Positions 5,327-53,313 of a DNA stretch of 64,000 nt are shown piece after piece. The stretch lies in assembly GCA_037142615.1 (NCBI GenBank), contig JBAXAI010000004.1, forward strand, positions 1 through 64,000, in the 5' to 3' direction. The position numbers and the translations under genes were made by a program. The DNA comes from Spirochaetales bacterium. GTDB taxonomy: Bacteria; Spirochaetota; Spirochaetia; JABEVK01. Below the pieces are notes generated by a model. That model did not search any database. It was not told the origin of the DNA and saw only the letters and a list, made by a program, of their open reading frames with translations. The first letter of the stretch is position 1. The number at the start of each line of letters is the position of its first letter.

Positions 5327-6295
5327 CTATGTCCAGCTCTTTAGGACGGTTAACTCGCCCTGAACAACGACGTGGAGGTTCGCCGGCAAGAACCAGGTTT
5401 CGCCCCCCTGCACCAGGTAGGCCTTTCCCGCGTGGACCAGGGCTCCGCCTCCATCGACGATGCTGAGAATCTGGTAGTTGTCGGTCGCCGCAAGGGCCCA
5501 GGTTCCATTCACCGCGACCCGGTCGACACTGTACTGCTCGTCGTGCACCAGAGGCTCCAGTACCGCTCCGGGCACTACCTCGGTGGGGCGCTGGCCCGCG
5601 TGGGTCAGTACGGGCGGGCGGTCAAAACGGATCACCTGCAACGCCTTGTCGAGGTGCAACTCGCGCCTCTTGCCGTTGTCGAGCCGGTCGAAGTCGTAAA
5701 TGCGGTAGGTCGTGTCGCTGTTTTGTTGGATCTCGCAAAGCAGCACCGAGCCGGTGAGCGACGCGTGGACGGTTCCCGGCGTGACGTGCACAAAGTCACC
5801 GGCTTGGACCGCCACCTCACGGAACAGTCCTTTCCACTGCCCGGCACGCGAACGCAGCGCAAACAACTCGGCATCGACTCCTTCAGCCATGCCCAAGATC
5901 AGTTTGGCATCGGGGCTGGCTTGCAGCACGTACCAGCACTCGGACTTGCCGAACTCGCCCTCGTTGGCCAGCGCGTAGGCGTTGTCGGGGTGCACCTGGA
6001 TCGACAGCTTGTCGTGGATATCCAGGTACTTGATCAGCAGAGGGAAGTTGGACCCAAACCGCTGCGCATTGGCCTTTCCCACCAGGCGCGCCCCTTCGCG
6101 TGCAACGAGATCGGGCAGGGTTTGTCCTTGCCAGTCCCCCTCGGCGACCACCGAGGGTCCGTTGGGGTGAGCCGAGACCTCCCAACTTTCGCCGTAAGGG
6201 GCCTCGGTAGGCAGGTCGATGCCGAGAAAGGACTCAAACTCGCGTCCTCCCCAGATTTTTTCCTTCAGAACCTTCTGAAACTTCAGTGGGTACAT
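5327..6295 (-). CDS. manA: class I mannose-6-phosphate isomerase
   Basis: KIWGG, GESWE, LSIQVHP, KSECWY, EIQQNSDTTYR. Confidence 0.93.
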   Translation of the reverse strand: MYPLKFQKVLKEKIWGGREFESFLGIDLPTEAPYGESWEVSAHPNGPSVVAEGDWQGQTLPDLVAREGARLVGKANAQRFGSNFPLLIKYLDIHDKLSIQVHPDNAYALANEGEFGKSECWYVLQASPDAKLILGMAEGVDAELFALRSRAGQWKGLFREVAVQAGDFVHVTPGTVHASLTGSVLLCEIQQNSDTTYRIYDFDRLDNGKRRELHLDKALQVIRFDRPPVLTHAGQRPTEVVPGAVLEPLVHDEQYSVDRVAVNGTWALAATDNYQILSIVDGGGALVHAGKAYLVQGGETWFLPANLHVVVQGELTVLKSWT

Positions 6296-6323
6296 GTCTC
6301 AGTCAATCACAAAACCGCTGGGT

Positions 6324-6352
6324 TTGACAAAGGCCCTTCCTTCCCTCAGTCT
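6324..6352 (+). promoter_or_regulatory. sigma70-like promoter, probably leaderless transcript
   Basis: TTGACA (6324-6329), 17 nt spacer, CAGTCT, 7 nt, then ATG 6360. Confidence 0.5.
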
Positions 6353-6359
6353 AGACCCT

Positions 6360-38606: not shown

Positions 38607-38608
38607 GG

Positions 38609-39556
38609 TCACTCCTGATAGGGCAAGAGGTGTCGGCTGGCAAAGATCTTGGGCCCCGAGATGACGAAGATTCGCTCGGTTCCCGCCTCGATGATGCCCA
38701 AAAGGTAGTCGGCAAGTTCGCCCGAAAAGATATGGTCCACATTCTGGATCTGGCTGCGCAGGAACTTCTGCTTCTTCGAAATCGAGTCGATGCAAAGGGC
38801 CAGGTCCTGCTCCTCGTGCTGCAGCAAAATGTACTGGTTCTTTTCTTCCATCTTGCGGCTCGAAAGCCCGATCGCCTCCGAGATATCCACGCAGGCGATG
38901 ATCTGGCCACGCAGGTTGATGAGCCCGCGCAGAAAGCTGTTGGTTTGAAACAGTGGCTCGACGCTGTAGCCCGAAACCACCTCGATCAGATCGGTGATCG
39001 GGATCCCGAACCGGTGGTGGTCGATGCCAAAACAGACCATCTCGATTTCGTCCTTGGGGTCCACATGTTCTTCTTCCGGATGGAGTTGGGTGTCTTGCCC
39101 CTGCAGCTGAACGTGGATGTTGTTTTCGACGAACGACTTCAGGTAGTGCAAATTGAGGCGGTTCAGGGCCTTCCCCCGGTAACGGAACACCTGGTCGACC
39201 AGTTGCCCCGAGACTTCGGGCAACGGAGGAGTTTCTTCGGCCCCCTCTGCAGTCTCCAGGACCAAGGATTCGACAAAACGGTCGATCAGGACGGCAAAGA
39301 GCCGCGACTCGCACTCCAGCACCATCAAAGTATGCGGTCCGGCGGCTTCGCTCGGAGGCCGACTTCCGCCGGCCGCGTGAATATCAATCACCGGGCATAG
39401 GGTCTGGCGAAAGTCCAGATACCCCAGGAACCCCGACGTGAGGACCGGAGCCAGTACCAGTGTGGGCGTCCGAATCACCTCGCGGACGTGGTCGATCTGG
39501 ACGCAATAGTGAAACTCGTCCTTGGTGAAAACGGAATAGTGGCTACCGGTATCCAT
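38609..39556 (-). CDS. cheW: tandem CheW-domain protein
   Basis: Two CheW repeats (GYLDFR..CPVID; GLINLRGQIIACVD). Confidence 0.88.
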   Translation of the reverse strand: MDTGSHYSVFTKDEFHYCVQIDHVREVIRTPTLVLAPVLTSGFLGYLDFRQTLCPVIDIHAAGGSRPPSEAAGPHTLMVLECESRLFAVLIDRFVESLVLETAEGAEETPPLPEVSGQLVDQVFRYRGKALNRLNLHYLKSFVENNIHVQLQGQDTQLHPEEEHVDPKDEIEMVCFGIDHHRFGIPITDLIEVVSGYSVEPLFQTNSFLRGLINLRGQIIACVDISEAIGLSSRKMEEKNQYILLQHEEQDLALCIDSISKKQKFLRSQIQNVDHIFSGELADYLLGIIEAGTERIFVISGPKIFASRHLLPYQE

Positions 39557-39579
39557 GGGGGGCCTCTTTTACCGACGGT

Positions 39580-41325
39580 TCAAAAGTCTTCGTCCGCGGC
39601 CTCGCCTTTGCTGCCAGCCGAGCTCAGCGACTTGCGCCGGGAGGGCGGTGACGACAACCGCTCCGTCTGCCGATGCGAGGCCGAGGAAAGTTGCAGCGGT
39701 CGGTCTTCCTTGTGCACCCGGAAGAAGCTCAACGTTTCTTGGAGCAACTGAAGCTGGGCCAAGGAGTCTTTGGCGATGGCGGCCAACTCGACACCGACAC
39801 CGGCGTTGCTCTGCACGCCTTCATCCAGTTGCTGGATGGCTGAGTTGATCTGGTGCACTCCCGTGCTCTGTTCGGCCGAGGCTTCCGAGATTTGCTGCAC
39901 CAGGTCGGCGGTGCGTTGAATATCGGGGGTCAACTTGATCAGTTTTTGCCCGGCAAGTTCGGAAATCTGCATGCACGACGCCGTGAGGTTGGTGATTTCG
40001 ACCGCCGCAGCCTCGCTGCGCTCGGCCAGCTTTTGCACTTCGGAGGCGACCACTGCAAAACCCCGGCCCTGTTCGCCGGCTCGTGCCGCTTCGATCGCCG
40101 CGTTGATGGCCAACAAGTTCGTCTGGCCGGCGATGTCCTGGATGACCGAGATCTTGGCGGCGATTTCTTTCATCGCCTTCACCGTATTGCTCACCGACTC
40201 GCCGGAGTCTTTGGTGTCCATGGTGGCTTGAATGGCAATTCTTTCGGTGCTGATGGCGTTGTCGGCGTTTTGTTGAATGCTGACCGAGATCTCTTCCATT
40301 GCGGCAGCCACTTCTTCGAGCGAAGCCGCCTGCGAACTGGTGCTCAGCGACATTTCCTGCGCAGAGGTGGTCATTTGCCGCGCTCCGGTCGAGATGCTGT
40401 CGACAGCCGTGCCCAACTCGCCGATGATGCGGGTCAGCGACTCCTTCATCCGGGCCAAGGACATCCCCAGCACGTCGCGGTCGTTGAGCGGTTTGATTTC
40501 GAGCAGCAACGAGCCTTTGGAAATCGTTTCCAGCGATTCGGCCCGGTCGCGCAGCGTCACCATCATCTGGTCCATCGCGGTGGCCAACTGGCCCAGTTCG
40601 TCCTTGCGTTTGAGGTCTTTCGGGCGCAAGGTGTGGTCCAGGTCTCCTGCCGCGACCTTGGCGGCGAGGTCCACCGAGCTTCGCAGCGGACCAGAAATCG
40701 AGAAGGCGAGCAGGAAAGCCAAGAGCAGCGAAAGCACCACACCCACCACCATGATCACCGTCAGCAAGACGACCGAGCCCTGAACGTCGAGCTCGCTTTG
40801 TTTGAAAAGGCCTTCCACCTCGCTCACCGTCGAGGTGGTCATCGTACCGAGACTCGCGAGCAAGTCGGTTTTGGCCGCCAGCAACTCCGGCGACTTGAGA
40901 AACGCGACAAAAGCCGGAGTCTTGCCCACCAGCCCCAGACTCATGGCTTTGTCGCAAGCCTGAAACCACGCTACCGACGCCTTTTGCCAGGCTTCGAAGT
41001 TCTTCTGGTCTTGCGGGCTGCTGAAACCCGTGCTGTAGTTCTTGAGCACTTCCACGCAGATCGCCGAGGAATCGTCATAGCTTCGCTTCAAGGCCTCGTC
41101 TTCGGCCAACACCGAAGTGAGGGCCATGTCGCGGACCTGCTGGTTGACCTCGCTGAGGCCATCGGTGTACTTCAGGACCATCAACAGGCTTTGGGTCCCG
41201 TTGTTGTACGAGTCGTCGACCGCCTTGAGGGCCTTTTGAAGGCTGATGATCCCCAGGGCCCCCATCAACAGACCGACCAGGGCGACCCCCACAAAGCCTG
41301 AAATGAGTTTCACACGAATGGACAT
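39580..41325 (-). CDS. methyl-accepting chemotaxis protein (four-helix-bundle sensor)
   Basis: 2 [33 protein letters not shown]. Confidence 0.95.
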
Positions 41326-41492
41326 GAGTTCTCCTCCACAGCGAAGGCTGTAGTTTGAAGTTTAGGCCTATGAAAACGAATAGTCTAGAGATTTTGGAAA
41401 AAAGGTTGATGAATCCCGGCTCCGGTGACGGAACTAAACAATATTGACTGGCATAAACTTCTGATCGATCCTTAGGAGTGCGGAGGCCACCC

Positions 41493-43496
41493 ATGGCGCG
41501 TTCAGTTCTTGCGGGGTTCAAGCACATTTCCACCAAGTTGCAGTTGATTTTCGGGGGGCTGATTCTTTTGGCCCTCGTCGCTCTCGGTGCCGTGGTGTTC
41601 AGCTTTCTTTCGGCCAACCTGGCGGCTCGCGGTAGTTGGGAACTGGGGGTGAATACCCAGATCATCGCGGCGATGACCGAACACCAGATCAACAAGTCAA
41701 TTGAACAGGGCCTGACAAAACACGCCCAGGACGCGGCGGCGGTTGCCCAGTTTCTGTACCAAAAGGCGCTGGATGGAACCCTCAAAGAGCCCGCAGCCCG
41801 CGAATTGTTCACCCAGTTCATTCTGAAGTCCAACATGTCGAAGATCGGCGACACCGGGTATTTGGCGGCGATCAACAGCAACGGCATCGCGGTGGTTCAT
41901 CCGACGAGCCCGGGCAAGGACTTCAGCACCTACGAGTTCATGCAAAGGGCCCTCAAGCAGAAGAACGGAATCATTTCGTACATGCTCAAGGGGGCCAACG
42001 ACACCGAGGAACGCCAAAAGGTAGGCGGCATGGCCTATTTTGAGCCTTGGGACATGATTATCTGGGCCTCGTCGTACCAGTCGGAGTTCACCAACCTTCT
42101 CGACGTTCCCTCGCTGACAAAAATGCTTTCTGAGGTGGCCAAGGAGCAGAAGGTCGAAATCTTCGTCGTGACCAAGGATGGCAAGGCGATCCTGAACCCC
42201 TACCAGAGCAAGCCTCAGATGCTCGAAGCCGTCGATGCCCAAGGTGTACCGTGGGTTCGGCACCTGCTCGAAAACCCTGCGGGAGTGAGCCTTTTTGAGC
42301 CGCTTGATCCGGCGGGCAAACCCCTGGGCCAACGGACGGCCCAATCCGCGAAGCTCGACCTGCTCCCCTGGGTCATCGTCGTCGCTGTGCCCTCGGTGAC
42401 CATTTCGGAGGCGGCCACGACCTCGCTCCTGATCATCATCATCGCCTCGGTGGTGCTTTTTGTGCTGTTCGTTCTGATTACCAACCGGGTGACCCGCAGC
42501 CTGACGCTGCCCATCACCAACACGCAGGCGCTGCTTTCGAAGGCCCTGGCCGGCGATCTGGCCAAGAGAATCCAGATCGAGAGCGCCGATGAGGTGGGCC
42601 AGATGGGTCAGCACTTCAACGAATTGCTGGCCATGTTGTCGGACCTCATCCAGCAAATCCAGTCCAACTCCACCGAGATCACCGACATGGTGCAGGGTCT
42701 GTCGGCCTCGACCCAGGAGATCAGCGCCACCGCCAACGAGCAGGCAGCGGCCGTCAAGGAAATTGTTTCCACCATTGAAGATACCAATCATCTGGCCAAG
42801 AACATCTCGACCCGGGTCGAGGAAGTGAGCCGCATCGCCACCGACACCAAGGGCAATGTCGAAGAAGGCTTCACCGCTGTGCGCGACAACATCTCCAAGA
42901 TGAACGAGATCCACGACGCCAACGGCAAGACCATTTCGGGTATCAACTACCTCAGCGACAAGATCAAGAACATCTGGGACATCGTGAACATCATCAACAG
43001 CATCGCCGACCAGACCAAGATCATCGCCTTCAACGCCGAACTCGAAGCCTCGAGCGCCGGCGAAGCGGGTAAAAACTTCCAGATCGTCGCCTCCGAGATC
43101 CGCCGTTTGGCCGACAGCACCGTCACCTCGACCAACGAGATCAAGATCCGCATTCAGGAAATTGAACGCAGCAGCGACGCCCTGTTGCTGTCGAGCGAGC
43201 AGGGGACCCTGCAAATTGTTCAAGGCAAGGACCTTTCGCAGCGCATGAACAAACTTTTCGGCGACATCGCCCTGAGTTCCGAAGTCAGCAGCAGTTCGAC
43301 CCAGCAGATCGCCGTGTCGATCCGGCAGCAGGTGAGCAGTTTTGAGCAGATTCTCATCGCCATCAAGCAGATTTCGCAGGGGGTCGACAACTTCGTCGTG
43401 GCCACCAAATCGACTTCGGGCACCACCGAAAACCTGCGCAAGATGGCCAACAAGCTGTCGGCCATGCTCGGCAAGTTCGACATGGGGCAAGGCTGA
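41493..43496 (+). CDS. methyl-accepting chemotaxis protein (Cache sensor, divergent tip)
   Basis: 2 TM, Cache-like region, HAMP, QTKIIAFNAELEASSAGEAGKNFQIVA. Confidence 0.93.
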   Translation: MARSVLAGFKHISTKLQLIFGGLILLALVALGAVVFSFLSANLAARGSWELGVNTQIIAAMTEHQINKSIEQGLTKHAQDAAAVAQFLYQKALDGTLKEPAARELFTQFILKSNMSKIGDTGYLAAINSNGIAVVHPTSPGKDFSTYEFMQRALKQKNGIISYMLKGANDTEERQKVGGMAYFEPWDMIIWASSYQSEFTNLLDVPSLTKMLSEVAKEQKVEIFVVTKDGKAILNPYQSKPQMLEAVDAQGVPWVRHLLENPAGVSLFEPLDPAGKPLGQRTAQSAKLDLLPWVIVVAVPSVTISEAATTSLLIIIIASVVLFVLFVLITNRVTRSLTLPITNTQALLSKALAGDLAKRIQIESADEVGQMGQHFNELLAMLSDLIQQIQSNSTEITDMVQGLSASTQEISATANEQAAAVKEIVSTIEDTNHLAKNISTRVEEVSRIATDTKGNVEEGFTAVRDNISKMNEIHDANGKTISGINYLSDKIKNIWDIVNIINSIADQTKIIAFNAELEASSAGEAGKNFQIVASEIRRLADSTVTSTNEIKIRIQEIERSSDALLLSSEQGTLQIVQGKDLSQRMNKLFGDIALSSEVSSSSTQQIAVSIRQQVSSFEQILIAIKQISQGVDNFVVATKSTSGTTENLRKMANKLSAMLGKFDMGQG

Positions 43497-43501
43497 CGGC
43501 C

Positions 43502-44011
43502 ATGGACTCCACCGAGATTCTCGAAGGGATCGAGCGGTCTCAAGACCTCGGAGGGCAGGGCACAGTCGTGGCCTCAAGCGACACCAAGTACATCATCTTC
43601 ACGGCAGGGGCCAAGCTCTACGCCTTGCTCGCTGACGACGTTCAGGAAATCATGCTGGGTTCCGAGATCCACTACCTGCCCTTTTTGCCAAGGTTTGTCC
43701 GTGGTTTGATCAACCGCCTCGGAGAACCGCTCACCGTGCTGGATCTCGAGTGCCTTCTCCAGGGACAACCGTTGCAGGGCAAGGCGTTCATCATCCTCAA
43801 GCCCCACCTTTCGAAGATGGCCCTGCTCATCGATGCGGTGCAGGACATCAGTCGGGTTCCCTCGCTGTCTATCCGCACCGTTTCGGAAGGCAGCCAGGGC
43901 CAGGACGCGTTTGTCGATGGCGTCTTCAGCCGCAAGGACGGCGATGTGACCCTTCTGTCGCTGCCCCACATCATTGCTGCGGTTCGGAAGGCCGTCGATG
44001 CTGCGAGCTGA
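43502..44011 (+). CDS. cheW: CheW
   Basis: LPFLPRFVRGLINRLGEPLTVLDL. Confidence 0.85.
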   Translation: MDSTEILEGIERSQDLGGQGTVVASSDTKYIIFTAGAKLYALLADDVQEIMLGSEIHYLPFLPRFVRGLINRLGEPLTVLDLECLLQGQPLQGKAFIILKPHLSKMALLIDAVQDISRVPSLSIRTVSEGSQGQDAFVDGVFSRKDGDVTLLSLPHIIAAVRKAVDAAS

Positions 44012-44528
44012 CTTTTTGGTGCTGCATTACGGGACTTTCGACCTCCTCTTTGCCCGGGACACGCTCTACGCTTCGACCTTTCGAAAGCCTTGCGAGGGAG
44101 TGACGGGCCGAGCCCGCGTGTCGTTTGGGCAGAAGGCCATCCTCGATATTGACCTTGATTCCTACGTGCGGCACCTGTTTCCTTCGGCCAGCGCGAGCCC
44201 GCCCCACCTGGGTGCCGTCTGCAAGGCCGCCGATCTGGCGGGTGGGAGCGACCAACTCGAGGGCGAGGAGCTTTTTTCGTTGGCCATTCCTTCGGATTCG
44301 GAAGTGCGGGCCTTGGAACTGTCGGAGTTCCGGCCCCTCCCGTTTCACCTGCGCCCTTGCCTCGACCGTCACGGCCTGCGGGCCCTTCGCTTTGAAGGGA
44401 GCCTGATTCAGTTCTTCTGCGACGCCGGAGTCTTTATTCCCGGGTGTCTGGCCTTTCATCAGTACAAAGGAGATAACGATGACCGTTCTGGTAGTTTCCC
44501 CGTCGGCTCTGCTACGCTCCACGCTTAA
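43998..44528 (+). CDS. hypothetical protein, possibly degenerate CheW-like
   Basis: ORF fills the cheW-cheB gap; weak CheW-like pattern. Confidence 0.5.
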   Translation: MLRADFLVLHYGTFDLLFARDTLYASTFRKPCEGVTGRARVSFGQKAILDIDLDSYVRHLFPSASASPPHLGAVCKAADLAGGSDQLEGEELFSLAIPSDSEVRALELSEFRPLPFHLRPCLDRHGLRALRFEGSLIQFFCDAGVFIPGCLAFHQYKGDNDDRSGSFPVGSATLHA

Positions 44529-45450
44529 AGAACTTCTGGGCCAGGTGGCAGGGGTCGATGCGGTGAGGGAGTTGGGCTCCGAGCTCCAGTTGGAATCGAC
44601 TCTCGGCCAATACGACCCCGCCCTAGTTCTCGTCGACGAAGCGCTGAACCTCAACCTGGCGCAGGTTGGCGGAGTATCTGGCACCGCGCCGGTCGTGATC
44701 CTCCTTCAAGGTCCCTCAACGCCGTCGCGAGCGCGGGCGTTGGCCAAACCCGATTTTGCCAGCGCGAGCCAAACCGACCTGAAAAAGACCTTTCTGCCCC
44801 TCCTGAGCGAGCTGGTGGTGGCTGCCGACGAAAAGCGTCAGCGAGGGGCCAACCCGCGCAACGGGGGCTCGACGGGGGCGTTTTCCCTGCTCGTGATCGG
44901 GGCTTCCACCGGCGGACCGGCTGCTGTCCGGACGGTCTTGTCCCATTTCGGCCCCGATTTTCCTTACCCGATAGCGTTGGTGCAGCACATCGATACCGGC
45001 TACGACGAGGGCTACGCCGCGTGGCTGGCACAAAACACCCGGCTGAAGGTGCGTTTGGCGCACGAAAACGACAGACCGTTGCCTGGCGAGGTGATCGTCG
45101 GGCCCAACGACGTGCACCTGGTTTGCCAAGGCGAAACCTTTGGCCTCGACGATGGCCCCAAGGTCCTTAGCCAGAAGCCCGCTGTGGACCGGTTGTTTTC
45201 CAGCGTGGCCCGCTACCATGGGGCGGGGGTTCTCGCGGTGCTTCTCACCGGAATCGGCTCGGATGGAGCCAACGGTTGCCTCGACATCGTGAAAGCCGGG
45301 GGCGTCACGATCGCCCAGGACGAAGCCACTTCGACCGTGTACGGCATGCCCCGGGCCGCCGCCGAGTTGGGGGCCGCCACCTACGTCTTGGGCCTCGACG
45401 CCATCGGCCCGGCGGTCCTGGAGCTGATCGCCAAGCGGCAACCATTGTGA
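44479..45450 (+). CDS. cheB: CheB methylesterase with degenerate receiver
   Basis: GASTGG, VQH, LTGIGSDGA, STVYGMP. Confidence 0.92.
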   Translation: MTVLVVSPSALLRSTLKELLGQVAGVDAVRELGSELQLESTLGQYDPALVLVDEALNLNLAQVGGVSGTAPVVILLQGPSTPSRARALAKPDFASASQTDLKKTFLPLLSELVVAADEKRQRGANPRNGGSTGAFSLLVIGASTGGPAAVRTVLSHFGPDFPYPIALVQHIDTGYDEGYAAWLAQNTRLKVRLAHENDRPLPGEVIVGPNDVHLVCQGETFGLDDGPKVLSQKPAVDRLFSSVARYHGAGVLAVLLTGIGSDGANGCLDIVKAGGVTIAQDEATSTVYGMPRAAAELGAATYVLGLDAIGPAVLELIAKRQPL

Positions 45451-46286
45451 TCGGCGAGCAGCGGCTCGAAGAACTGCGCCACTACCTCGAGCACCGGCTG
45501 TCGCTGGTGGTCCCCGAGACCAACTTTTCGCGGTTGGCCGAGTTCGTCGGCGAGCGCCTGGCCGCCCGGGTTTGTTCGTTCGCCGAGTACCTGGAGTACC
45601 TGGCGATCGACGCGGCCGAAATGGACCTGCTCATCCAGGTCTCCACCATTGGCGAGACCTACTTCTTCCGTGACGAAGACCACTTCACCTTGTTGCAACA
45701 GCAAATCCTGCCTTTCTTTGCCTCCCAGGGGCATACCCCCCTCGCTTGGAGCGCCGCCGCCTCCACCGGTGAAGAGGCTTTGTCGCTCGCCGCCCTTTAC
45801 GCCGACTTTTTCGGCAGTACCCTGCCTTTGGGGGGCAAAATCTGGGCCTCCGACATCAACAACCTCGCGCTCGAATCCCTCGTGTCGGGCTCGTATTCCT
45901 TCCGGTCCCTTCGCGACGACGGAAGCCGGTTTCACCCGCTCTTGGAACCCTGGCTTACTCGCGGCACAGACCATCTCCAGGTCGATTCGCGCCTCAACAG
46001 TCAAGTCCAAGCTCGGCATATCAACCTGATGACCGACAGCTTCGAGAGCATCCCTGGCCGCGTTGATATTCTGTTTCTGAAGAACATGCTGATTTACTTC
46101 CCGCTGGAACGTCGAAAGGCCATTTACCGCAAGGTGAGCGAAAAGCTCTCGCCGGAGGGGTTCTTGATACTCGGGAAGTCCGAAGTCCCCTTTTTCGAGG
46201 ATCCCGGGCTGAAACTCCTGGAACACGGAGGACTGTTCTTCTTTGTCGCCAAGACCTCGTCCTTCGAGGCAAGGAGCCTGCCGTGA
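45447..46286 (+). CDS. cheR: CheR methyltransferase
   Basis: IGETYFFRD, WSAAASTGEE, ASDI, KNMLIYF; GTG start overlapping cheB stop. Confidence 0.9.
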   Translation: MIGEQRLEELRHYLEHRLSLVVPETNFSRLAEFVGERLAARVCSFAEYLEYLAIDAAEMDLLIQVSTIGETYFFRDEDHFTLLQQQILPFFASQGHTPLAWSAAASTGEEALSLAALYADFFGSTLPLGGKIWASDINNLALESLVSGSYSFRSLRDDGSRFHPLLEPWLTRGTDHLQVDSRLNSQVQARHINLMTDSFESIPGRVDILFLKNMLIYFPLERRKAIYRKVSEKLSPEGFLILGKSEVPFFEDPGLKLLEHGGLFFFVAKTSSFEARSLP

Positions 46287-48364
46287 TCTCGACGGAACTT
46301 CTGAGTTTGTTCCAGACCCAAACCCGCGCTACCCTTGTAACGCTTCGCGCACTTCTGGTGCAGGCCCTTCGCAACGCCGACGACGAGATCCTCTGGATAC
46401 GGCTGCGGCGCCTGCTCGAAGCGCTGGCTGCCGACGCCCAGGCTGCCGAAAACACCGGTTTGGCCACGTTGGCAACCGCGATGAACCAGATTCCTACCGG
46501 ACTCCTCGAGGGGCGGTATTCGTTCGGCCCGCTCTACGTCAAGCTTTTGATGCTGCTCGCCGAGCACCTCGAAGACCTTCTGGGTGCCGTGTCGCAAACC
46601 ACCACCGAAAGGCTCGTCACCCTGTGCGACCTGTGCAACCGGGCCTACAACCGCGAGTCGTTTTCGCTCAAGGGGTTCTCGCTGGCCGAAATGCTGCAGC
46701 AAAAGCTGGCGCCGGAGGCCGCCAAGCTCGAGGCCAAGGGTGAGGAGTCGGTCCAAGTGAGCCTCGAGACGGTGGAACGCCTGGGTGAGAGGCTTAATTC
46801 GGTGATCGTGCACCAGTTCCAGCTCAAAAAGAACGGCGACGGCCTCTCGCTGGTCGAAGAAGCCGTGCGTGACCTCCTCGGGGGGTTGGCCGCCGGAGAA
46901 GCGGGGCCCAAAACGCGGCAGCGGGCCGAAACCGTTTTGAAGGACCTGCAGACTCTGGGAACCGGCCTCAAGGAAGACCTGCTGGCGGTGGACCGCTCGT
47001 CGTTTGGACTGCAGGAAGAGATTGCCCGGCTGCGCATGTTGCCCTTCCAGGTGATCTGCGAGCGATTGTCGGCGCACGCCCGCAAGCAGGCCCAGGGGGC
47101 TGGCAAAACCGTTGAGTTAGGCGTTCAGGGCCAAGACACCCTGCTCGACAAATCGATTCTCGAGCTGGTTTTGGTCCCGCTGTCGGAACTGCTTTCGAAC
47201 GCGGTGGCCCACGGAATCGGGCCCGGTGGCGACGGACAGGTGAAACTCGAGTGCTCGAGCGACGGCACCTCGATCCGCATCGCCGTGGTCGATCACGGTC
47301 CCGGGGTTGACTTCGAAGCGCTCCGCACGGCGGCTTTGGCGGCTTTCCCGTTGGAGCGTGCCGAAATCCTGGCCATGGGCGCCGAGCAGTTGACGAGGTT
47401 CCTGTTCGAGCCGGGCCTGGGAAACCGAACCGGGCTCGCCGCTGTCAAAGAAGCTCTCGACGCCATGCAGGGCAAAATCACCGTGGAATCGCCAACGGGA
47501 GCCGGTACGACGGTCGTGCTGCAAATCCCGGCTTCCGTGTCGCTGGTGAGCGGTTTTTTTGTCCGGGCCGGGGGCGAGAGGTTCTTCATTCCCGCCGTGT
47601 ACGTGCGCGAAGTGGTCATTTTTCAGCGCAGCCAACTGGTCAGTTTGCCGGGAGGACCCGTCTACCCGCTGCGGCAGGAAATGGTGCCCGTTGTTCCCCT
47701 GGCGAACGTGTTCGAAGGCAAGGAGGCCCTGCGCAAAGAGGTCGAGCAGATGGCCGTCATTTCGCTGCTAGGCGAAACCTGGGGCCTCATTCTCGACACG
47801 ATTGTGCGCCACGCGACCCTGGGCTACAAACCGCTTCCCGACAACCTTTCGTCGCTCAAGGAGGTGCAGGGCCTCGTCTACGACGAAAAGTTCAACCTGG
47901 TGCCCATCCTGAGCATCCCGGCGATCATCATCCAGATCCGACGCCTGCGCTCGATCGAGTTTCGCCAGCGCTACCAAAGAGCCGACGTTTCGGGGCGCAA
48001 TATCCTCTTGGTGGATGACAGCCTGGTCTCCCGCCAGACCTTGGGGCGCATCCTGACCGACGGAGGTTTCACCGTCGAGGTGGCCGAAGACGGTATCGCG
48101 GCGCTCGAATTGCTGCACCACAAATACTTCCATCTGGTGATCACCGACGACGAAATGCCACGGATGGATGGCCTGACTCTGGTCGAGAATCTGCGCAAAG
48201 AACCCGAGTACGTCGAAGTGCCCGTCATCGTCCTGGTCGCCGAACGCGACGGTGAGGCCGAAGGCCGGTTCCGCAACGCTGGCATCCGCGACTTTTCCCT
48301 CAAGTCCGACTTCGACCGCCACGCCTTGCTGCGCGACATCCGTCGGCTCTTGGCGCGGGGCTAG
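46283..48364 (+). CDS. CheA-like hybrid protein lacking the Hpt histidine
   Basis: LRMLPF, LLDKSILE, NAVAHGI, DHGPG, CheW and REC present; Hpt helix reads LRRLLEALAADA. Confidence 0.85.
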   Translation: MISTELLSLFQTQTRATLVTLRALLVQALRNADDEILWIRLRRLLEALAADAQAAENTGLATLATAMNQIPTGLLEGRYSFGPLYVKLLMLLAEHLEDLLGAVSQTTTERLVTLCDLCNRAYNRESFSLKGFSLAEMLQQKLAPEAAKLEAKGEESVQVSLETVERLGERLNSVIVHQFQLKKNGDGLSLVEEAVRDLLGGLAAGEAGPKTRQRAETVLKDLQTLGTGLKEDLLAVDRSSFGLQEEIARLRMLPFQVICERLSAHARKQAQGAGKTVELGVQGQDTLLDKSILELVLVPLSELLSNAVAHGIGPGGDGQVKLECSSDGTSIRIAVVDHGPGVDFEALRTAALAAFPLERAEILAMGAEQLTRFLFEPGLGNRTGLAAVKEALDAMQGKITVESPTGAGTTVVLQIPASVSLVSGFFVRAGGERFFIPAVYVREVVIFQRSQLVSLPGGPVYPLRQEMVPVVPLANVFEGKEALRKEVEQMAVISLLGETWGLILDTIVRHATLGYKPLPDNLSSLKEVQGLVYDEKFNLVPILSIPAIIIQIRRLRSIEFRQRYQRADVSGRNILLVDDSLVSRQTLGRILTDGGFTVEVAEDGIAALELLHHKYFHLVITDDEMPRMDGLTLVENLRKEPEYVEVPVIVLVAERDGEAEGRFRNAGIRDFSLKSDFDRHALLRDIRRLLARG

Positions 48365-48366
48365 CG

Positions 48367-49914
48367 ATGTTCGTCGTGCTGCTGGGCGACGCGGCGTTGT
48401 GGCCCGAGGTGTGGCGTGCCCCGCCGTTGCAGTTCCTGTGCCTTGCCAGCGACGACGGGTTCGCCGATTTCGACGGGGGCTCGCTGGACACGGTTCCCGA
48501 CCTTGTCGTGCTCGACCAACCGGGCGCCCCAGGGTTTCTCGCCCTTCTGAACCACCTCAAGTTCCAGTTTTCCGAGAACCGGACCCGACTCGTCGCCTGG
48601 TCGGGAACCCCGAGCCCGCGCGAAGTGTTTGTGTGCCACAACGCGGGGCTACTCCTTTTGCACCCCGGCCTGGTCGAGGAACTTCCTTCGCTGGAGGCTC
48701 TACCCAGGCCCGTTCTTCCTGGTTCGCCGAGGCCGGAGGCGCTGAACCTCGAAAATCTCGGGTTCGCGCTGAGCCTGCACCAAAACCTGACCCAGTCGTT
48801 TTTGGAAAGCCAGAACCCGACGGCGCTGTTTTGGCACCTGCGAAATGCCTTTTCCCTGGTTTCGAATCCGGACATCCTGGTATTCATCCTGAAGGACCGC
48901 CCGCAAATCAAGGCGACAATCTTCTCTGGGCCCGGCCTCGCCACCACCGAGTGCGATTATTTTTTACGTTTCTGCCAGCAGGATTTTTTGGGGACCGACC
49001 GGTTTGTCGACCTCGAGTCGATGGAAGTCGAGTACCTCGAAAAGGACCAGCGGCTCTTGACGGGGCGGGGCCGGGGAGCGCTGAGCTCGTATTGGTTCCA
49101 CGAGCTGAAGGACCCGCAGGGAACGAGCCTCGGGACGGTTCACAGCGGCAGTTTCAGCAACCAGTATTTTACCCCCCTGGTCGAGCGGCGTCTGTCGTAC
49201 CTGGCGGTTCTGGTGGGGCCCCTGGTCGGCATGATGCAGCGCGGCCAGCAACTGAGCCGACGTTTCGTGTCGCTGAGGGCCCTGTTCGGAAAGTTCCTCC
49301 CCGACCCGGTGGTGGAAAAACTTCTGGCCGCCGAGCAGGATGGACCGTTGGAAGAGGGCCGGAAGCAGGAGCTGGCCATTTTGTTTTCCGACATCCGGGG
49401 CTTCACGTCGATCACCGAGCGAAACGGTGCCGAGGCGGTGGTCGGCTTCCTGAACCGGCATTTCGACGCCATGGTGACGGCCATTGTGGCCCACGGCGGC
49501 GTTGTCGACAAGTTCATCGGCGATGCCATCGTCGCGGTGTTTGGCATCAACCCGCTGCCGACTTCGGCGGCCGAGGCCGCTGCCCGGGCCGCGCGGGCCA
49601 TGATGGCAACCCTGAACACCGTGGACCTTTCGGGTCTTGCACTCGAAGGCAACGCCTACCGCATCGGCATCGGCCTGCACTTCGGCGAAGTCGTTCTCGG
49701 CTACCTGGGCTCAGACGAAAAGACCTCGTTCACCGTCATCGGAAAGGCCGTGGAAACCGCCGAACTCCTGGAGTCGTCCACCAAGCTTTACCACGTCGAT
49801 ATTTTGGCTTCCGGGGAACTGCGCGACCAGATTCAGGCCGAAGACCTGGCGTTCATCGACCTCGGCAAGCTGGAAGACGCCGAAGGAGACACCCTCAGGG
49901 TGTATACGGTATGA
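48367..49914 (+). CDS. class III cyclase homolog A (metal-binding Asps kept, Asn/Arg lost)
   Basis: FSDIRGFT, DKFIGDA present; GKAVETAELLE replaces GDxVNxAxRLE. Confidence 0.88.
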   Translation: MFVVLLGDAALWPEVWRAPPLQFLCLASDDGFADFDGGSLDTVPDLVVLDQPGAPGFLALLNHLKFQFSENRTRLVAWSGTPSPREVFVCHNAGLLLLHPGLVEELPSLEALPRPVLPGSPRPEALNLENLGFALSLHQNLTQSFLESQNPTALFWHLRNAFSLVSNPDILVFILKDRPQIKATIFSGPGLATTECDYFLRFCQQDFLGTDRFVDLESMEVEYLEKDQRLLTGRGRGALSSYWFHELKDPQGTSLGTVHSGSFSNQYFTPLVERRLSYLAVLVGPLVGMMQRGQQLSRRFVSLRALFGKFLPDPVVEKLLAAEQDGPLEEGRKQELAILFSDIRGFTSITERNGAEAVVGFLNRHFDAMVTAIVAHGGVVDKFIGDAIVAVFGINPLPTSAAEAAARAARAMMATLNTVDLSGLALEGNAYRIGIGLHFGEVVLGYLGSDEKTSFTVIGKAVETAELLESSTKLYHVDILASGELRDQIQAEDLAFIDLGKLEDAEGDTLRVYTV

Positions 49915-51662
49915 GCACCCCACCGAAAACCCTGCTGGTGCTCGATGACTCGGAGTTCTTCTCGGCGTTCCTTGAGCCCATTCTCGAAGCTTCGGGCTAC
50001 GCTGTCACCACGCGCCCGGAACTGGCCGGCGCGTTGCTGATCGATCCCACGTGGCATTCCGATTCGGGCTACCTGCTGCTGGCGGCGCTGCGCGAGCTTG
50101 CCCCCCGCACAACGCTTCCTGTCGTGGTTCTGCTGGCCTCGACGAGCAGCCAGTCGAGGGCCTTTCTTCAGGGCCTGCAGTTCCCCTGGACGGTGAAAGG
50201 TCGGCTGAAGGCCGAGTCTCTGGGCCGCTACGTCGGCCGCCACTTGGGGCAGCAGGCCTGGGCCGGAGAGTTTGGCCGCCTGGTCGAAGAGGCTCTGGCC
50301 AAGTCGCTCCAGGTCGACTCCCGGCCGTTTTTGCACCCGCTGATCAGCGGCTCGTTGCTTCACGCGATTTCCGAGGCCGATCACCTGGCCAGGGCCCTCG
50401 AATTGGGCGTCCAGTCGCTGTTGGATCATTTTCCGTTGCTCGCCGCGGGCCTGGAAGTGAATGGTTCCCGTCTGTTGGCCTGTTGTGCGAACCCCGAGGC
50501 CAGGCGGGCGGCCACGGCAGTCCGCGAGACCTTGGGTTGGTCCCCGGAACCGTCCGAGCCCGAACTGCGCGAACTTTCGGCTGATTTTCCGGGGTGGCGG
50601 GCAACCGGCGGGCAGGCAACCGGGGGGCAGTTCGAGCGGAGTTTCACGTTGCCTCGCTGCGGTGGCCGGCTTGTCGCCGTATTCGGTACCGACGACGACC
50701 TGATTCTCGATTACTTTGGGCGTGCGCTCGACGATTTCGACCGGGCTTTGACGGTCCTGACCCAAGGCCTGGCTCTGGCAAACTCCGAGCGGCGCGTGTT
50801 TCGGGTCTTTTCGCGCTTTGTGCCCTCGGTGGTGATCGAGGATCTGCTGCGAAAACGTTCGGCCGCCGCCCTGCTCACCGGCGAAAAGCGACGCATCGTC
50901 GCGCTGTTTTCCCACGTGCGCGACTTTTCGTTCTACGTCGAGGAAAATGACCCGAAAGAACTGGTGCGGTTCTTGAACCGCCATTTCAGCCTTTACGCCA
51001 AGGTCATCCGCAAGCACGGAGGGTTCATCAACAAATACATCGGCGACGCCGTGTTTGCGATTTTTGGAGCGCCGGTCAGCCACATCGACAACGCCCGCCG
51101 GGCGCTTGCCGCTGCCCTCGAGATCCAGCAGGAACTGGCCCAATTGCCGTTGCTGGACCTGCACTATCCCCCCAGTGGCTACCGGGTCGGCCTGGGCCTC
51201 AACGAGGGCGAGTCCATCGTCGGCAACATCGGCAGCCGGGACTCCTTTGACTACACGGCCATCGGCGACACCATCAATCTCGCGGCCCGTCTGGAATCGC
51301 TGTGCAAGCACTACCAGGTCGAGCTGCTGCTGTCCCAGGATTTCCGGCAGGCCTTGGAGTCGCAGGAAGATCCGCACCCGCTGCGGCAGGTCGACCGGGC
51401 ACGCGTCAAGGGAAAGCTGGTGCCGACGGTATTCCATACCGTGTACCCCGCCGAGTTTGACCTCGAGTTTGACCGCTGCTACCGCAAAGGCCTCACCATG
51501 TTCCGCCTCGGCAACTGGACCACGGCGCTCGAGTTTTTCGAAAAAGGCCTCGAACTGGATCCCAGCGACTTCCTGTGCGGCCTGTACTCGCAGCGCTGCC
51601 GCGAGTTCTTGAAGGCACCTCCTGTGAGTTGGGACGGCGCCATCACGCTGGGGTTCAAATAG
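49911..51662 (+). CDS. class III cyclase homolog B (REC-like N-terminus, first metal Asp lost, Asn/Arg kept, TPR-like tail)
   Basis: FSHVRDFS, NKYIGDA, DYTAIGDTINLAARLE, VKGK; ATGA overlap. Confidence 0.88.
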   Translation: MSTPPKTLLVLDDSEFFSAFLEPILEASGYAVTTRPELAGALLIDPTWHSDSGYLLLAALRELAPRTTLPVVVLLASTSSQSRAFLQGLQFPWTVKGRLKAESLGRYVGRHLGQQAWAGEFGRLVEEALAKSLQVDSRPFLHPLISGSLLHAISEADHLARALELGVQSLLDHFPLLAAGLEVNGSRLLACCANPEARRAATAVRETLGWSPEPSEPELRELSADFPGWRATGGQATGGQFERSFTLPRCGGRLVAVFGTDDDLILDYFGRALDDFDRALTVLTQGLALANSERRVFRVFSRFVPSVVIEDLLRKRSAAALLTGEKRRIVALFSHVRDFSFYVEENDPKELVRFLNRHFSLYAKVIRKHGGFINKYIGDAVFAIFGAPVSHIDNARRALAAALEIQQELAQLPLLDLHYPPSGYRVGLGLNEGESIVGNIGSRDSFDYTAIGDTINLAARLESLCKHYQVELLLSQDFRQALESQEDPHPLRQVDRARVKGKLVPTVFHTVYPAEFDLEFDRCYRKGLTMFRLGNWTTALEFFEKGLELDPSDFLCGLYSQRCREFLKAPPVSWDGAITLGFK

Positions 51663-51714
51663 GCGCCTTTCTCGAAGGCGGAGAATCCGTGCTACTATGC
51701 GCTGGGGGCCCCAC

Positions 51715-52923
51715 ATGGAGCGACTGCAAGACGGTTACTGCCTCGTCCTTTCGGGCGGTGGTGCCAAGGGCGTGTACCACATCGGGGTGTGGAGGGCCCT
51801 CAAGGAACTGGGAATCGGCGTGCAGGCGTTTGTCGGCACCTCCATCGGCGCCATCATGGCCGCTCTTTTGGCCCAAGGTTCCGACGCTGAGCTCGAAACC
51901 ATCGGCAAGACCATCACCCTCGACGCCATCCTTGCTCTGCCTCCCGAGTTGCTCGGTGGCTTGGTCGAACACCGCGGTTTGGACACGGCTCCACTCCGGG
52001 CCCTGTTGGAACAGCACATTCAGGAACCTGCTCTGCGTCGCAGCGGAGTCGATCTGGGCATTGTCACGGTCAACCTGAGTTCGCTCAAGGCCGAGGAACT
52101 GTTCCTCGACAGCATCCCCGAAGGGAGCCTGATCGACTACCTGATGGCCAGTTCGGCCTTCCCGGGGTTTTCCACGCCCGTGATCGAGGGAAAGCGGTAC
52201 GTCGATGGGGGACTTCACGACAACATTCCGCACGCGGTGGCCCGCAAGCGCGGCTATACGAAAGTGATTGTCAGCGACATCTCGGGTTTCGGTTTCAAGA
52301 AGGCGCCCGACGTGGAAGGTTCGGTGACCGTCTTCATCAAAAGTTCCATCAAAATGGGCAGCGTGCTCGACTTTCGTCGGGAGTTCCTCGACGACTTCAC
52401 GCTGCTGGGCTATCTCGATACGCTGCGGACGTTCGGGGTGCTCCACGGACGCGACTACGCGGTTGAGCCCAACCCCGAAGCCGAGGTTGCCTTCGCGCGC
52501 GAGCCCACCAGGATTGCGACCGCGCGGGAGGTCCTTCCCGACGAACGAAAGTTGGATCGACTGGTTTGGTTGCAATTGCTCGAATGCTCTGCCCTCGTGT
52601 TTGGCGTTCCCCGGGTTCGGCGCACAACCTACGAAGAACTGGCGCGGGCCGTCGTGGACCGGCGAACCGCCGAAGACGCCCAAGTCGCCGAACTAGCGCA
52701 GGTGGAGGGAAGCGGGAGGCTCTCGCTGCTCAACACCCTGCGCGAAGCCGTGTCGAAGAAGAGCCTCAACTGGAGTCCCTACGTGACTTGGAAGCTGTTG
52801 GAGCATTTGGTGCCGGCACAAGCTGACCGGCTCGTGCTGAGAACCTTGTCGGCGTTGCAACCCGAGTTACCGGCCGCCCTGCAGGCCTTGCAGACCCTGG
52901 ATCAGGCCACAGCCCTAACTTAG
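51715..52923 (+). CDS. patatin-like phospholipase
   Basis: GGGAKG, GTSIG, DGG. Confidence 0.92.
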   Translation: MERLQDGYCLVLSGGGAKGVYHIGVWRALKELGIGVQAFVGTSIGAIMAALLAQGSDAELETIGKTITLDAILALPPELLGGLVEHRGLDTAPLRALLEQHIQEPALRRSGVDLGIVTVNLSSLKAEELFLDSIPEGSLIDYLMASSAFPGFSTPVIEGKRYVDGGLHDNIPHAVARKRGYTKVIVSDISGFGFKKAPDVEGSVTVFIKSSIKMGSVLDFRREFLDDFTLLGYLDTLRTFGVLHGRDYAVEPNPEAEVAFAREPTRIATAREVLPDERKLDRLVWLQLLECSALVFGVPRVRRTTYEELARAVVDRRTAEDAQVAELAQVEGSGRLSLLNTLREAVSKKSLNWSPYVTWKLLEHLVPAQADRLVLRTLSALQPELPAALQALQTLDQATALT

Positions 52924-52989
52924 CTTTGACGCTAGCGGGGGCTGCGGCCCAATTGTCGGTGGTCTTGAGCCTGGTGGTCTTGTCGGCAC

Positions 52990-53313
52990 CTACATCATGC
53001 GTGTGTTGAGCGTGAAGATGACCCACACCGTGCCGAAGATGAAGATCAGCAGGATGATCGCGGTGAATGTGATCGAGATAAAGTCCCACTGCTTGTCCTT
53101 CGAAAGGTCCAAGTGCAGGAAGTAGTACAGGTGGACCACGATTTGCGCCACGGCGGCGATCACGATGCCCAGGATGGCGGCTACCGGCGGAAGACCGCCG
53201 AACATAACCAATCCGAACGAAACCAAGGTCAAGACAATCGCCAGGGCGAACCCGACCATGTACTTGCCGGCGCTCGAGTGGCCGGTTGCGTGGCTAACTT
53301 GTTCATGCGACAT
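52990..53313 (-). CDS. cyoD: cytochrome bo3 quinol oxidase subunit IV
   Basis: YMVGF.LAIVLT, QIVVHL.YFLH. Confidence 0.93.
   Translation of the reverse strand: MSHEQVSHATGHSSAGKYMVGFALAIVLTLVSFGLVMFGGLPPVAAILGIVIAAVAQIVVHLYYFLHLDLSKDKQWDFISITFTAIILLIFIFGTVWVIFTLNTRMM

Follow-up and report, generated by a model that had tools for sequence, protein, structure and literature searches.

Can two genes that each lack part of a cyclase active site together specify one working enzyme? The question is raised by a pair of overlapping genes, A and B, in a 64,000-nt stretch of DNA from a Spirochaetales bacterium (contig JBAXAI010000004.1, positions 1 to 64,000 of the forward strand; assembly GCA_037142615.1), which is referred to below as the window. 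In class III cyclase dimers, one chain brings two Asp residues to each site, and the other chain adds Lys, Thr/Asp, Asn, and Arg. As described below, A and B divide this set of six residues between them in a reciprocal manner that is conserved in all related gene pairs examined. We conclude that they probably constitute a class III adenylate cyclase that works only as a heterodimer, with a single active site next to a degenerate pocket, a reading drawn from sequence comparison, to which we assign a probability of roughly 0.7.

Reciprocal loss of catalytic residues

The two genes, their cyclase domains, and the diagnostic residues are located as follows.

48367-49914, plus strand: gene A, putative metal-binding half-enzyme of 515 amino acids (aa), with a degenerate receiver-like domain, a GAF-like domain, a long helix, and a cyclase domain, and with no TPR tail
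49911-51662, plus strand: gene B, putative substrate and transition-state half-enzyme of 583 aa, with a receiver-like domain, a diverged middle domain, a long helix, a cyclase domain, and a TPR tail
49911-49914, plus strand: ATGA overlap of the A stop and the B start, an arrangement usually taken as translational coupling
49357-49911, plus strand: cyclase homology domain of A (PF00211, 6.4e-18, residues 331-479; Foldseek matches to CyaB 3r5g and CyaC 1wc1, among others, at E 1e-11 to 1e-15)
50883-51443, plus strand: cyclase homology domain of B (PF00211, 4e-16, residues 328-505; PDB sequence matches)
49390-49392, plus strand: A D342, first metal-binding Asp, retained (alignment and codon; invariant in 10/10 A proteins)
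49522-49524, plus strand: A D386, second metal-binding Asp, retained (alignment and codon; invariant in 10/10 A proteins)
49753-49755, plus strand: A E463 at the position of the transition-state Asn (alignment and codon; E, A, G, T, or S in 10/10 A proteins, N in none)
49765-49767, plus strand: A L467 at the position of the transition-state Arg (L in 2/10 and E in 8/10 A proteins; the preceding E466 is invariant in A)
50913-50915, plus strand: B H335 replacing the first metal-binding Asp (alignment and codon)
51276-51290, plus strand: B N456-R460 (NLAAR), transition-state Asn and Arg, retained (alignment and codon; invariant in 10/10 B proteins)

PF00211 is matched by A with 65.4 bits and by B with 59.6 bits (curated cut-off, 21.9), as well as by all ten A and all ten B proteins of the paired genomes described below. 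The closest solved relatives of both proteins are bacterial class III enzymes, namely Cya2 (2w01), CyaB (3r5g), CyaC (1wc0), and the photoactivated cyclases. The catalytic positions were assigned by alignment to solved cyclases and to 19 intact orthologs, and the codons were checked. The sequence of A reads FSDIRGF, DKFIGDA, and GKAVETAELLE at the corresponding motifs, with D342, K382, D386, and T456 at four of the catalytic positions, E463 in the Asn slot, and L467 in the Arg slot. That of B reads FSHVRDF, NKYIGDA, DYT, and INLAARLE, with H335 in the slot of the first Asp and K375, D379, T449, N456, and R460 at the remaining positions. The initial annotation had claimed that A keeps both Asp residues and loses Asn and Arg, that B replaces its first Asp with His and keeps Lys, Thr, Asn, and Arg, and that the two genes overlap by ATGA; all three statements agree with the alignment, the codons, and the coordinates. 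A additionally retains the substrate-side Lys and Thr (K382 and T456). The full set of six catalytic residues is found in neither chain alone and is complete only across A and B. The Lys/Thr substrate pair (K375/T449 in B, K382/T456 in A) is what we take to be the mark of the adenylate-specific subclass, class IIIb, and would predict ATP as the substrate.

Two simpler origins of the pattern were considered and rejected. A single gene split by a frameshift is ruled out, as each of A and B has its own N-terminal receiver-like domain, middle domain, and full cyclase domain. An alignment artifact is likewise ruled out as the source of the His residue in B, the motif FSH[VIM][RK] being aligned without gaps to FSDIR in all rows.

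Conservation of the split in paired and single-gene relatives

A total of 401 genomes of the class were queried with B. Matches at E ≤ 1e-50 were obtained in 98 genomes, 34 of them at E ≤ 1e-70, after which there is a gap to 5.6e-59. All 34 genomes holding an ortholog were examined: 10 carry the A+B pair, 22 carry a single gene, and in the other two (G140 and G384) a B-like gene is cut by the end of a short contig. The ten pair genomes are the window's genome (G000) and G002, which belong to one genus, seven genomes of family code f35, and one genome of family code f2, and the paired genes follow the CheA gene. Genomes coded to one genus may hold either form (the pair in G075, the single gene in G049), and no genome with both forms was seen among those examined.

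With A as a query over 41 related genomes, G002 (79% identity) was the only genome besides the window's own to give a full-length match; a locus search of genome contigs with A alone likewise matched only the G002 contig. In five genomes of other families, a protein of 613-639 aa matches A from approximately residue 130-170 onward and is 42-47% identical to B in a region that spans the cyclase domain and the tail. Pfam reads this single protein as a receiver, a weak GAF, and a cyclase, and its gene sits directly after that of the hybrid CheA in an MCP-CheW-CheB-CheR-CheA operon. Outside the operon, contig C14 of G002 contains a 204-aa open frame (87355-87777, minus strand) that is 63% identical to residues 440-581 of B and may be a partial extra copy of it.

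The catalytic residues were compared in an alignment of 39 proteins (10 A, 10 B, and 19 single-gene). D, K, D, and T are kept in 10/10 A proteins, and Asn and Arg are absent from all ten. His is found at the first Asp position in 10/10 B proteins, each of which keeps K, D, T, N, and R. All six residues are present in 19/19 single-gene proteins, and three further ones read DKDTNR, DKDTNR, and DKDSNR, giving 22/22 intact orthologs; His at the first Asp position occurs in 0/22. The two B proteins at contig ends read HKDTNR. Chance would not produce this pattern, given that 22 of the 29 cyclase domains of the window's genome carry all six residues. The complementary division of the residues between two chains, noted initially for the window alone, thus recurs in 10/10 pairs and in one metagenome pair, and the substitutions, whose variability had been named as the sign of decay, are conserved over three family codes and that metagenome locus. 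The A/B pair is a family and not a one-off.

The metagenome pair (locus L069) consists of adjacent genes reading DKDTGE and HKDTNR and is the eleventh pair; it was the best of 80 loci obtained in a metagenome scan with the A alignment, the other 79 containing canonical cyclases only (80 of the 82 cyclase open reading frames [ORFs] are canonical). The order A then B on one strand is found in 11/11 pairs, with a spacing between -65 and +10 nt by first-start ORF calls, and a 4-nt overlap is seen in four of these pairs, that of the window among them. This order, strand, and spacing fit co-translation of A and B in equal amounts.

A library of 1.84 billion cluster representatives was also searched with an A profile, and the best 150 of 107,624 matches were classified. 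More than half of these 150 clusters (86) are canonical, 22 are A-type single-domain proteins (median length 518.5 aa), and 21 are B-type single-domain proteins (20 with His and one with Lys; median length 598 aa). The remaining clusters are multi-domain (17), lack only one of Asn and Arg (2), or are gapped (2). Many of the multi-domain proteins are approximately 2000 aa long and contain an A-like domain followed by a B-like domain, i.e., a eukaryote-style fusion. In this library of sequences stripped of their genomic context, the near-equal numbers of A-type and B-type clusters and their matching lengths fit partners that travel together.

Phylogeny and selection

A maximum-likelihood tree of the helix and cyclase region was built from 42 rows and 210 columns, including three outgroup cyclases and no eukaryotic sequences. 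The ten A proteins form one clade (support 95/97) and the ten B proteins another (96/91), and the same four sister pairs are found in both (G000 and G002, G360 and G342, G075 and G156, G249 and G273). The tree is compatible with one duplication of a single-gene ancestor, of which it is not proof. The domain content points the same way, A having kept the GAF-like domain and lost the tail and B having kept the tail. In the tree of the associated kinases, six CheA proteins of pair operons are in one clade (support 100) and two long-branch lineages stand apart; this tree neither shows nor excludes a single origin or a transfer of the operon. The placement of the f2 genome G075 beside the f35 genome G156 in the CheA tree suggests that the operon travels, or is passed on, as one block. 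Convergence with the eukaryotic C1/C2 enzymes, suggested in the initial annotation, agrees with these data: in a tree free of eukaryotic sequences, A and B are placed among spirochaete receiver-GAF-cyclase-TPR orthologs, with which they also have operon position and domains in common, and an origin independent of C1/C2 therefore fits.

Ratios of nonsynonymous to synonymous substitution (dN/dS), estimated roughly by the pairwise Nei-Gojobori method, are 0.084 for A, 0.107 for B, and 0.073 for CheA between G000 and G002, and 0.044 for A and 0.054 for B between G249 and G273. Both A and B are under purifying selection and clearly constrained. Simple decay, i.e., a drift of one or both genes toward pseudogenes after duplication, would account for the catalytic residues missing from each gene and for the long branch of A in the window's genus (2.62). 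It is scarcely credible for genes with open frames and a dN/dS of 0.04-0.11, similar to that of the neighboring CheA gene, the more so as neither frameshifts nor variable substitutions were seen in the relatives. The identical pattern in 10/10 pairs and the metagenome pair and the presence of 22 A-type and 21 B-type clusters among the best 150 library matches also speak against it.

Structure models and the predicted dimer

The AlphaFold2 (AF2) model of A has a mean predicted local distance difference test (pLDDT) score of 70.4, with most 10-residue blocks of the cyclase domain between 62 and 93. In a Foldseek search, this model matched bPAC, CyaC (1wc1), CyaB (3r5g), and Rv1625c with E values of 1e-10 to 1e-15; the full-length model gave matches to the cyclase domain only, leaving the N-terminal and middle domains without a match. 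The model of B has a mean pLDDT of 61.6, with residues 113-312 below 50 and cyclase domain blocks at approximately 80-95 apart from dips, including 45 over residues 441-450. Only secondary-structure patterns were drawn from these models, because they are mediocre outside the cyclase domain.

The complex was modeled from residues 290-515 of A and 283-512 of B, with a 10-row alignment for each chain and with ATP and two Mg included. The A/B score is 0.75 (0.74, 0.75, and 0.77 in individual runs), compared with 0.00 for the best of three controls; the mark set for this score is reached by 58/80 solved complexes and 2/110 mismatched pairs. At least 86% of contacts are common to the runs, the partner pLDDT is 85, and the modeled interface is formed by the central dimer surface together with the helices that precede the cyclase domains. 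Complex modeling, proposed in the initial annotation as a check, therefore supports the usual cyclase dimer, but it does not rank the heterodimer over the homodimers, and the pass probably reflects likeness to solved structures, because many cyclase-domain dimers have been solved.

In the proposed mechanism, the cyclase domains of A and B would pair head to tail. The complete site would bring together D342 and D386 of A with K375, T449 (adenine-selecting), N456, and R460 (transition-state) of B. The symmetry-related pocket, with H335 and D379 of B opposite K382, T456, E463, E466, and L467 of A, would be catalytically dead, and it may serve as a nucleotide-binding pocket or as a contact specific to the heterodimer. 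In an A/A dimer, neither site would have Asn or Arg, and in a B/B dimer, His would replace the metal ligand in both. The analysis shows the residues, their conservation, the single origin of each subunit type, purifying selection, and the operon setting; from these we infer that A binds B, that activity requires A plus B, that the Che kinase exerts control, and, in view of the Lys/Thr pair, that the product is cyclic AMP (cAMP).

Several residues of the leftover pocket are invariant in the ten pairs (His of B; Lys, Thr, and Glu466 of A), and the Arg position is occupied by Glu in 8/10 A proteins. One may speculate that the acidic residues of A facing the His of B disfavor an A/A dimer (acid against acid) and seal the pocket or bind a nucleotide without turnover. 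The pair would have originated by tandem duplication of a single receiver-GAF-cyclase-TPR response regulator, each copy having lost a different half-site, and would serve as the cAMP-making output of a chemotaxis-like, non-motility operon.

Accessory domains and signal input

Outside the catalytic domains, the following regions were delineated in the two proteins.

48367-48666, plus strand: A residues 1-100, putative receiver-derived domain without the acidic pair (pseudo-receiver; hhalign against the ortholog receiver, probability 63.4, E 6.8e-5; alternating strand/helix pattern at low pLDDT)
48733-49161, plus strand: A residues ~123-265, GAF-like sensor domain (common to the single-gene orthologs; BLAST matches to them start at approximately residue 165)
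49174-49338, plus strand: A residues 270-324, long helix preceding the cyclase domain (AF2 helices 270-307 and 313-324; interface residues 293-323 in the complex model)
49923-50246, plus strand: B residues 5-112, receiver-like domain (hhalign against the ortholog receiver, probability 97.6, E 3.5e-12; alignment)
51462-51659, plus strand: B residues 518-583, TPR-like tail ending in a W-D-G ... F-K motif (Pfam TPR_2, 7.3e-08; present in the single-gene orthologs and absent from A)

The middle domain of A is recognizable by sequence as GAF-like, the tail being lost. Its assignment to GAF is a lead, because it comes from an Atlas feature search (GAF clusters, 0.95) and weak Pfam matches (GAF_2 at 0.063 in one of the ten A proteins and at 0.00014 in the G029 ortholog). 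In B, the tail is kept and the middle region has diverged past sequence recognition, with the same helix/strand pattern.

The receiver domains differ in their state of preservation. By alignment, the single-gene orthologs have the canonical receiver residues DD, D, T, and K in 16/19 proteins; of two orthologs scanned with Pfam, G029 scores 5.2e-22 and G019, one of the three degenerate ones, 1.3e-05. Pfam Response_reg is matched by none of the ten A proteins and by two of the ten B proteins, neither A nor B of the window being among the matches. Aligned to the orthologs, B of the window's genus retains DD, the Asp at the acceptor position, Ser/Thr, and Lys, whereas neither the acidic pair nor the Lys remains in A of this genus. 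The remaining eight B proteins have apparently lost both the acidic pair and the Asp, the alignment being uncertain there. The N-termini of A and B can be taken to derive from the receiver of the single-gene form. Judging from these residues, phosphotransfer from CheA to the receiver-like domain of B would be the likeliest route of control in the window's organism, with A contributing a pseudo-receiver; CheA control through B is accordingly proposed for the window's genus as a whole.

Degenerate N-terminal receivers of both proteins in most lineages, together with the fact that neither chain has the full residue set, would suit a pair of pseudo-enzymes that make no cyclic nucleotide and through which the Che pathway acts by nucleotide binding or scaffolding. 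We consider this very improbable: every catalytic residue is kept across the two chains and is invariant where needed, and the preservation of such a split over this divergence is not expected under loss of function.

Weighing the heterodimer against a B homodimer

Several observations weigh against an obligate heterodimer under CheA control. All pairs trace to one duplication, so that the 10/10 count shows long retention and not ten independent events. The A, B, and single-gene clades form a polytomy and the outgroup split has a support of 60/9, so that A and B are not established as sister lineages; the A branch of the window's genus is, moreover, very long (2.62). The dN/dS ratios are rough, because dS is 1.6-1.9, i.e., near saturation. 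The complex score covers A/B only, so that a preference for the heterodimer over A/A or B/B is not readable from it, and any two cyclase domains should reach the mark. The connection between CheA and the enzyme is drawn from the operon and the orthologs, because Pfam calls a receiver in 0/10 A and only 2/10 B proteins. Finally, His can bind metals, which makes a B homodimer with His/Asp sites conceivable, and the strict conservation of His in B hints at some function.

The last point can be developed into an alternative in which B is the real enzyme, acting as a homodimer with His335 as a metal ligand (e.g., for Mn), and A is a dead paralog that regulates B through less active or inactive heterodimers. 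B retains five of the six residues, including the second Asp, as well as the ancestral TPR tail and, in the window's genus, the receiver hallmark residues; the presence of His in 10/10 pairs and in 20 of the 21 B-type clusters among the best 150 library matches suggests that it is used. Against this stands the invariant retention of both Asp residues, Lys, and Thr by A proteins whose identity to the A of the window is no more than 25-29%, which speaks against a mere inhibitor, as an inhibitor would not need them. The losses are also exactly reciprocal, with His at this position in none of the 22 single-gene orthologs, and in the mycobacterial Rv1625c, replacing the corresponding Asp reportedly nearly abolishes activity. 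On balance, we consider a B homodimer regulated by A unlikely and favor the A/B heterodimer, which is in line with all computational checks that could be made, including the test of decay named in the initial annotation.

Operon context

The A and B genes close a tightly packed plus-strand cluster in the order MCP, CheW, CheB, CheR, hybrid CheA, A, and B, the gap between the CheA stop and the start of A being 2 nt. The upstream genes are as follows.

41478-43496, plus strand: chemoreceptor with dCache, HAMP, and MCP signaling domains, first gene of the operon (Pfam MCPsignal 7.6e-30, dCache_2 1.7e-19, HAMP 6.6e-08; syntenic in related operons)
43502-44011, plus strand: CheW coupling protein (Pfam CheW 3.7e-17; syntenic)
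44479-45450, plus strand: CheB methylesterase (Pfam CheB_methylest 6.2e-53)
45276-46286, plus strand: CheR methyltransferase (Pfam CheR 1.8e-33; BLAST to orthologs)
46283-48364, plus strand: hybrid CheA kinase with HATPase, CheW-like, and C-terminal receiver domains (HATPase_c 3.9e-14, CheW 9.9e-14, Response_reg 8.5e-20)

The start of the CheR ORF is probably over-extended, because orthologs align only from approximately residue 58-66. By the Pfam assignments of the individual genes, a multidomain enzymatic output takes the place of a lone CheY in a cluster with MCP, CheW, CheA, CheB, and CheR. Synteny, with the cyclase gene or genes in the last position, was checked in 19 related operons, comprising G002, five single-gene operons, and 13 further loci (eight paired, three single-gene, and two contig-end fragments). 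The pair stands in a Che-like pathway that ancestrally ended in a single receiver-cyclase. Scans of 41200-53200 for regulatory signals stayed at chance level, with two promoter-like sites (1.4 expected) and 14 terminator-like sites (14.7 expected).

The gap between CheW and CheB (44012-44478 in the window) is approximately 470-520 nt long and present in all operons examined, and a small conserved gene may lie there; the ORF at 43974-44528 between the two genes matches no Pfam family. CheR is 444-486 aa long in most related operons, compared with approximately 274-336 aa in the window's genus, G360, and G342, and the longer forms may be CheR-TPR fusions like those of PMC3447774. A patatin-like phospholipase gene (51697-52923, plus strand; Pfam 4.8e-34) begins 35 nt after B. 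It lies outside the related operons, where an MCP gene is often the next one instead.

A second, divergently arranged Che-like system with a cyclase output occupies 33658-41325 on the minus strand of the window. It consists of an MCP gene (39580-41325), a gene for a 1218-aa CheA with Hpt, dimerization, HATPase, CheW-like, and receiver domains (35658-39314), and a gene for a 667-aa cyclase with two Pfam receiver stretches and all six catalytic residues (33658-35661).

Other cyclases of the genome

The window's genome (a 4.27-Mb assembly in 76 contigs) contains 29 matches to PF00211, a large lineage-specific expansion. Two of the loci found in it show catalytic asymmetries of their own. On contig C7 (locus L155), two adjacent plus-strand genes separated by 10 nt (125252-127960 and 127971-130532) encode cyclase proteins of 902 and 853 aa with N-terminal NHL repeats. 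At the six catalytic positions, the first protein has S, K, G, T, N, H and thus neither metal-binding Asp, and the second has D, H, D, T, D, R, with both Asp residues kept and Lys and Asn lost; they may represent a second split-site pair. On contig C16 (45796-49551, minus strand; locus L156), a protein of 1251 aa contains two cyclase domains followed by AAA_16 and TPR repeats, i.e., a soluble adenylate cyclase (AC)-like architecture, with the signatures D, G, D, A, A, L in the first domain and -, Q, D, S, N, R in the second. Within the window itself, a further cyclase (6294-8000, plus strand) has a Fer2 2Fe-2S ferredoxin-type domain (1.1e-08) directly before the catalytic domain, which would suit a redox-sensing adenylate cyclase.

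With so many domains in one cell, including the partly reciprocal pair on contig C7 and the fused two-domain protein on contig C16, A and B might pair non-exclusively and complement others of the 29 domains in a combinatorial heterodimer network. We regard such a network as improbable, more so than the B homodimer discussed above. A and B are always adjacent, in a fixed order and usually overlapping or nearly so, and their trees agree; the 22 complete domains of the genome need no partner; and A and B share the same long pre-cyclase helix, which is part of the modeled interface. These features favor a dedicated A/B heterodimer.

Relation to known systems

The closest functional parallel is the mammalian C1/C2 core, in which C1-type Asp residues are combined with the Lys, base-selecting residue, Asn, and Arg of the C2 type. 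As proposed for A/B, one domain provides the two Asp residues and the other the substrate and transition-state residues, which yields one site and one degenerate pocket; the C1/C2 structures 1azs and 1cjk matched A weakly. In contrast to A/B, which are two soluble proteins encoded by overlapping genes, the C1 and C2 domains belong to a single membrane protein with 12 helices that is regulated by G proteins. A and B further differ from them in that each carries a receiver-like and a GAF-like domain of its own, in the use of Thr instead of Asp for base selection, and in a probably independent, bacterial origin. A recent review (PMC9552081) describes the mammalian enzymes as pseudoheterodimers that arose from a bacterial progenitor by duplication, and states that bacterial class III cyclases homodimerize to form the catalytic center, active centers being dimeric.

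The alpha and beta chains of soluble guanylate cyclase (sGC; PMC3591389) are separate homologous gene products that form an obligate heterodimer with one catalytic site and one pseudo-site, as proposed for A and B; each chain likewise has N-terminal sensor-type domains and a helical linker, and the sGC structures 3uvj, 4ni2, and 6jt0 are among the PDB matches to A and B. sGC differs from A/B in being eukaryotic, in producing cyclic GMP, in its control by nitric oxide via H-NOX, and in genes located outside an operon. Among bacterial proteins, soluble-AC-like fused proteins with a downstream AAA-type NTPase and TPRs, such as the contig C16 protein, also have asymmetric pairs of cyclase domains (in that protein, D..D without N/R in the first, N/R in the second), but these are joined in one chain, belong to an unrelated family and domain context, and are encoded outside a Che operon.

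The single-gene receiver-GAF-cyclase-TPR regulators of the 22 genomes share with A and B the operon position, the domain order, and 34-49% identity, and presumably provide the same pathway output. They differ in being encoded by one gene with six residues in 22/22 cases and presumably form a symmetric homodimer with two sites. Two mycobacterial proteins offer further comparisons. In Rv1625c, mixing complementing point mutants, one lacking Asp and the other Arg/Asn, reportedly restores one active site, an experimental precedent for the principle, and Rv1900c of Mycobacterium tuberculosis is reportedly an asymmetric homodimer. The Rv1625c mutants are engineered and the Rv1900c chains are identical, whereas A/B is a naturally fixed gene pair. 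Dimer complementation of Rv1625c is also mentioned in PMC9552081.

With respect to the pathway, the Che-like Wsp system (with the receiver-GGDEF protein WspR) and the Pil-Chp control of CyaB in Pseudomonas are chemosensory pathways with a nucleotide second messenger output instead of flagellar switching, as proposed for the A/B operon. WspR differs in making cyclic di-GMP and CyaB in not being a receiver-cyclase encoded in the operon, and neither system is known to contain a split-site heterodimer. A 'mononucleotidyl cyclase' is listed among receiver fusions in cheR-TPR 'alternative cellular function' clusters in PMC3447774.

A full-text literature search, with most subscription journals outside its scope, retrieved no natural, conserved, operon-encoded bacterial class III pair with reciprocal catalytic losses. 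Older surveys reportedly speculated that bacterial cyclases lacking residues might heterodimerize. We rate the novelty of a two-gene split-site bacterial pair as moderate.

Implications

A wider interpretation, which we offer tentatively and hold at somewhat less than even odds, is that A and B represent a bacterial family of obligate two-gene adenylate cyclases derived from a duplicated response-regulator cyclase. They would correspond to the unfused stage postulated, and so far unobserved, on the way to C1/C2. The dead pocket (His of B; Lys, Thr, and the acidic residues of A) would now be a heterodimer-specifying or nucleotide-sensing allosteric site, and in the window's genus, a phosphorylatable receiver in B and a pseudo-receiver in A would control the one active site.

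The asymmetric one-site design is usually regarded as a eukaryotic feature. If the heterodimer holds true, this pair of bacterial genes, conserved within an operon and with exactly reciprocal losses, would mean that evolution arrived at the C1/C2 design a second time on its own. It would also illustrate clearly how the two copies of a duplicated gene can degenerate in complementary fashion, down to single catalytic residues. The pair is directly comparable with intact single-gene ancestors, which in sister lineages still occupy the same operon position. As soluble bacterial proteins, A and B would make it testable what is gained from losing one site, what role the leftover pocket plays, how heterodimer specificity is enforced, and how one receiver controls one site. 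For the spirochaetes that carry it, the pair would constitute the output, probably cAMP, of a chemosensory pathway.

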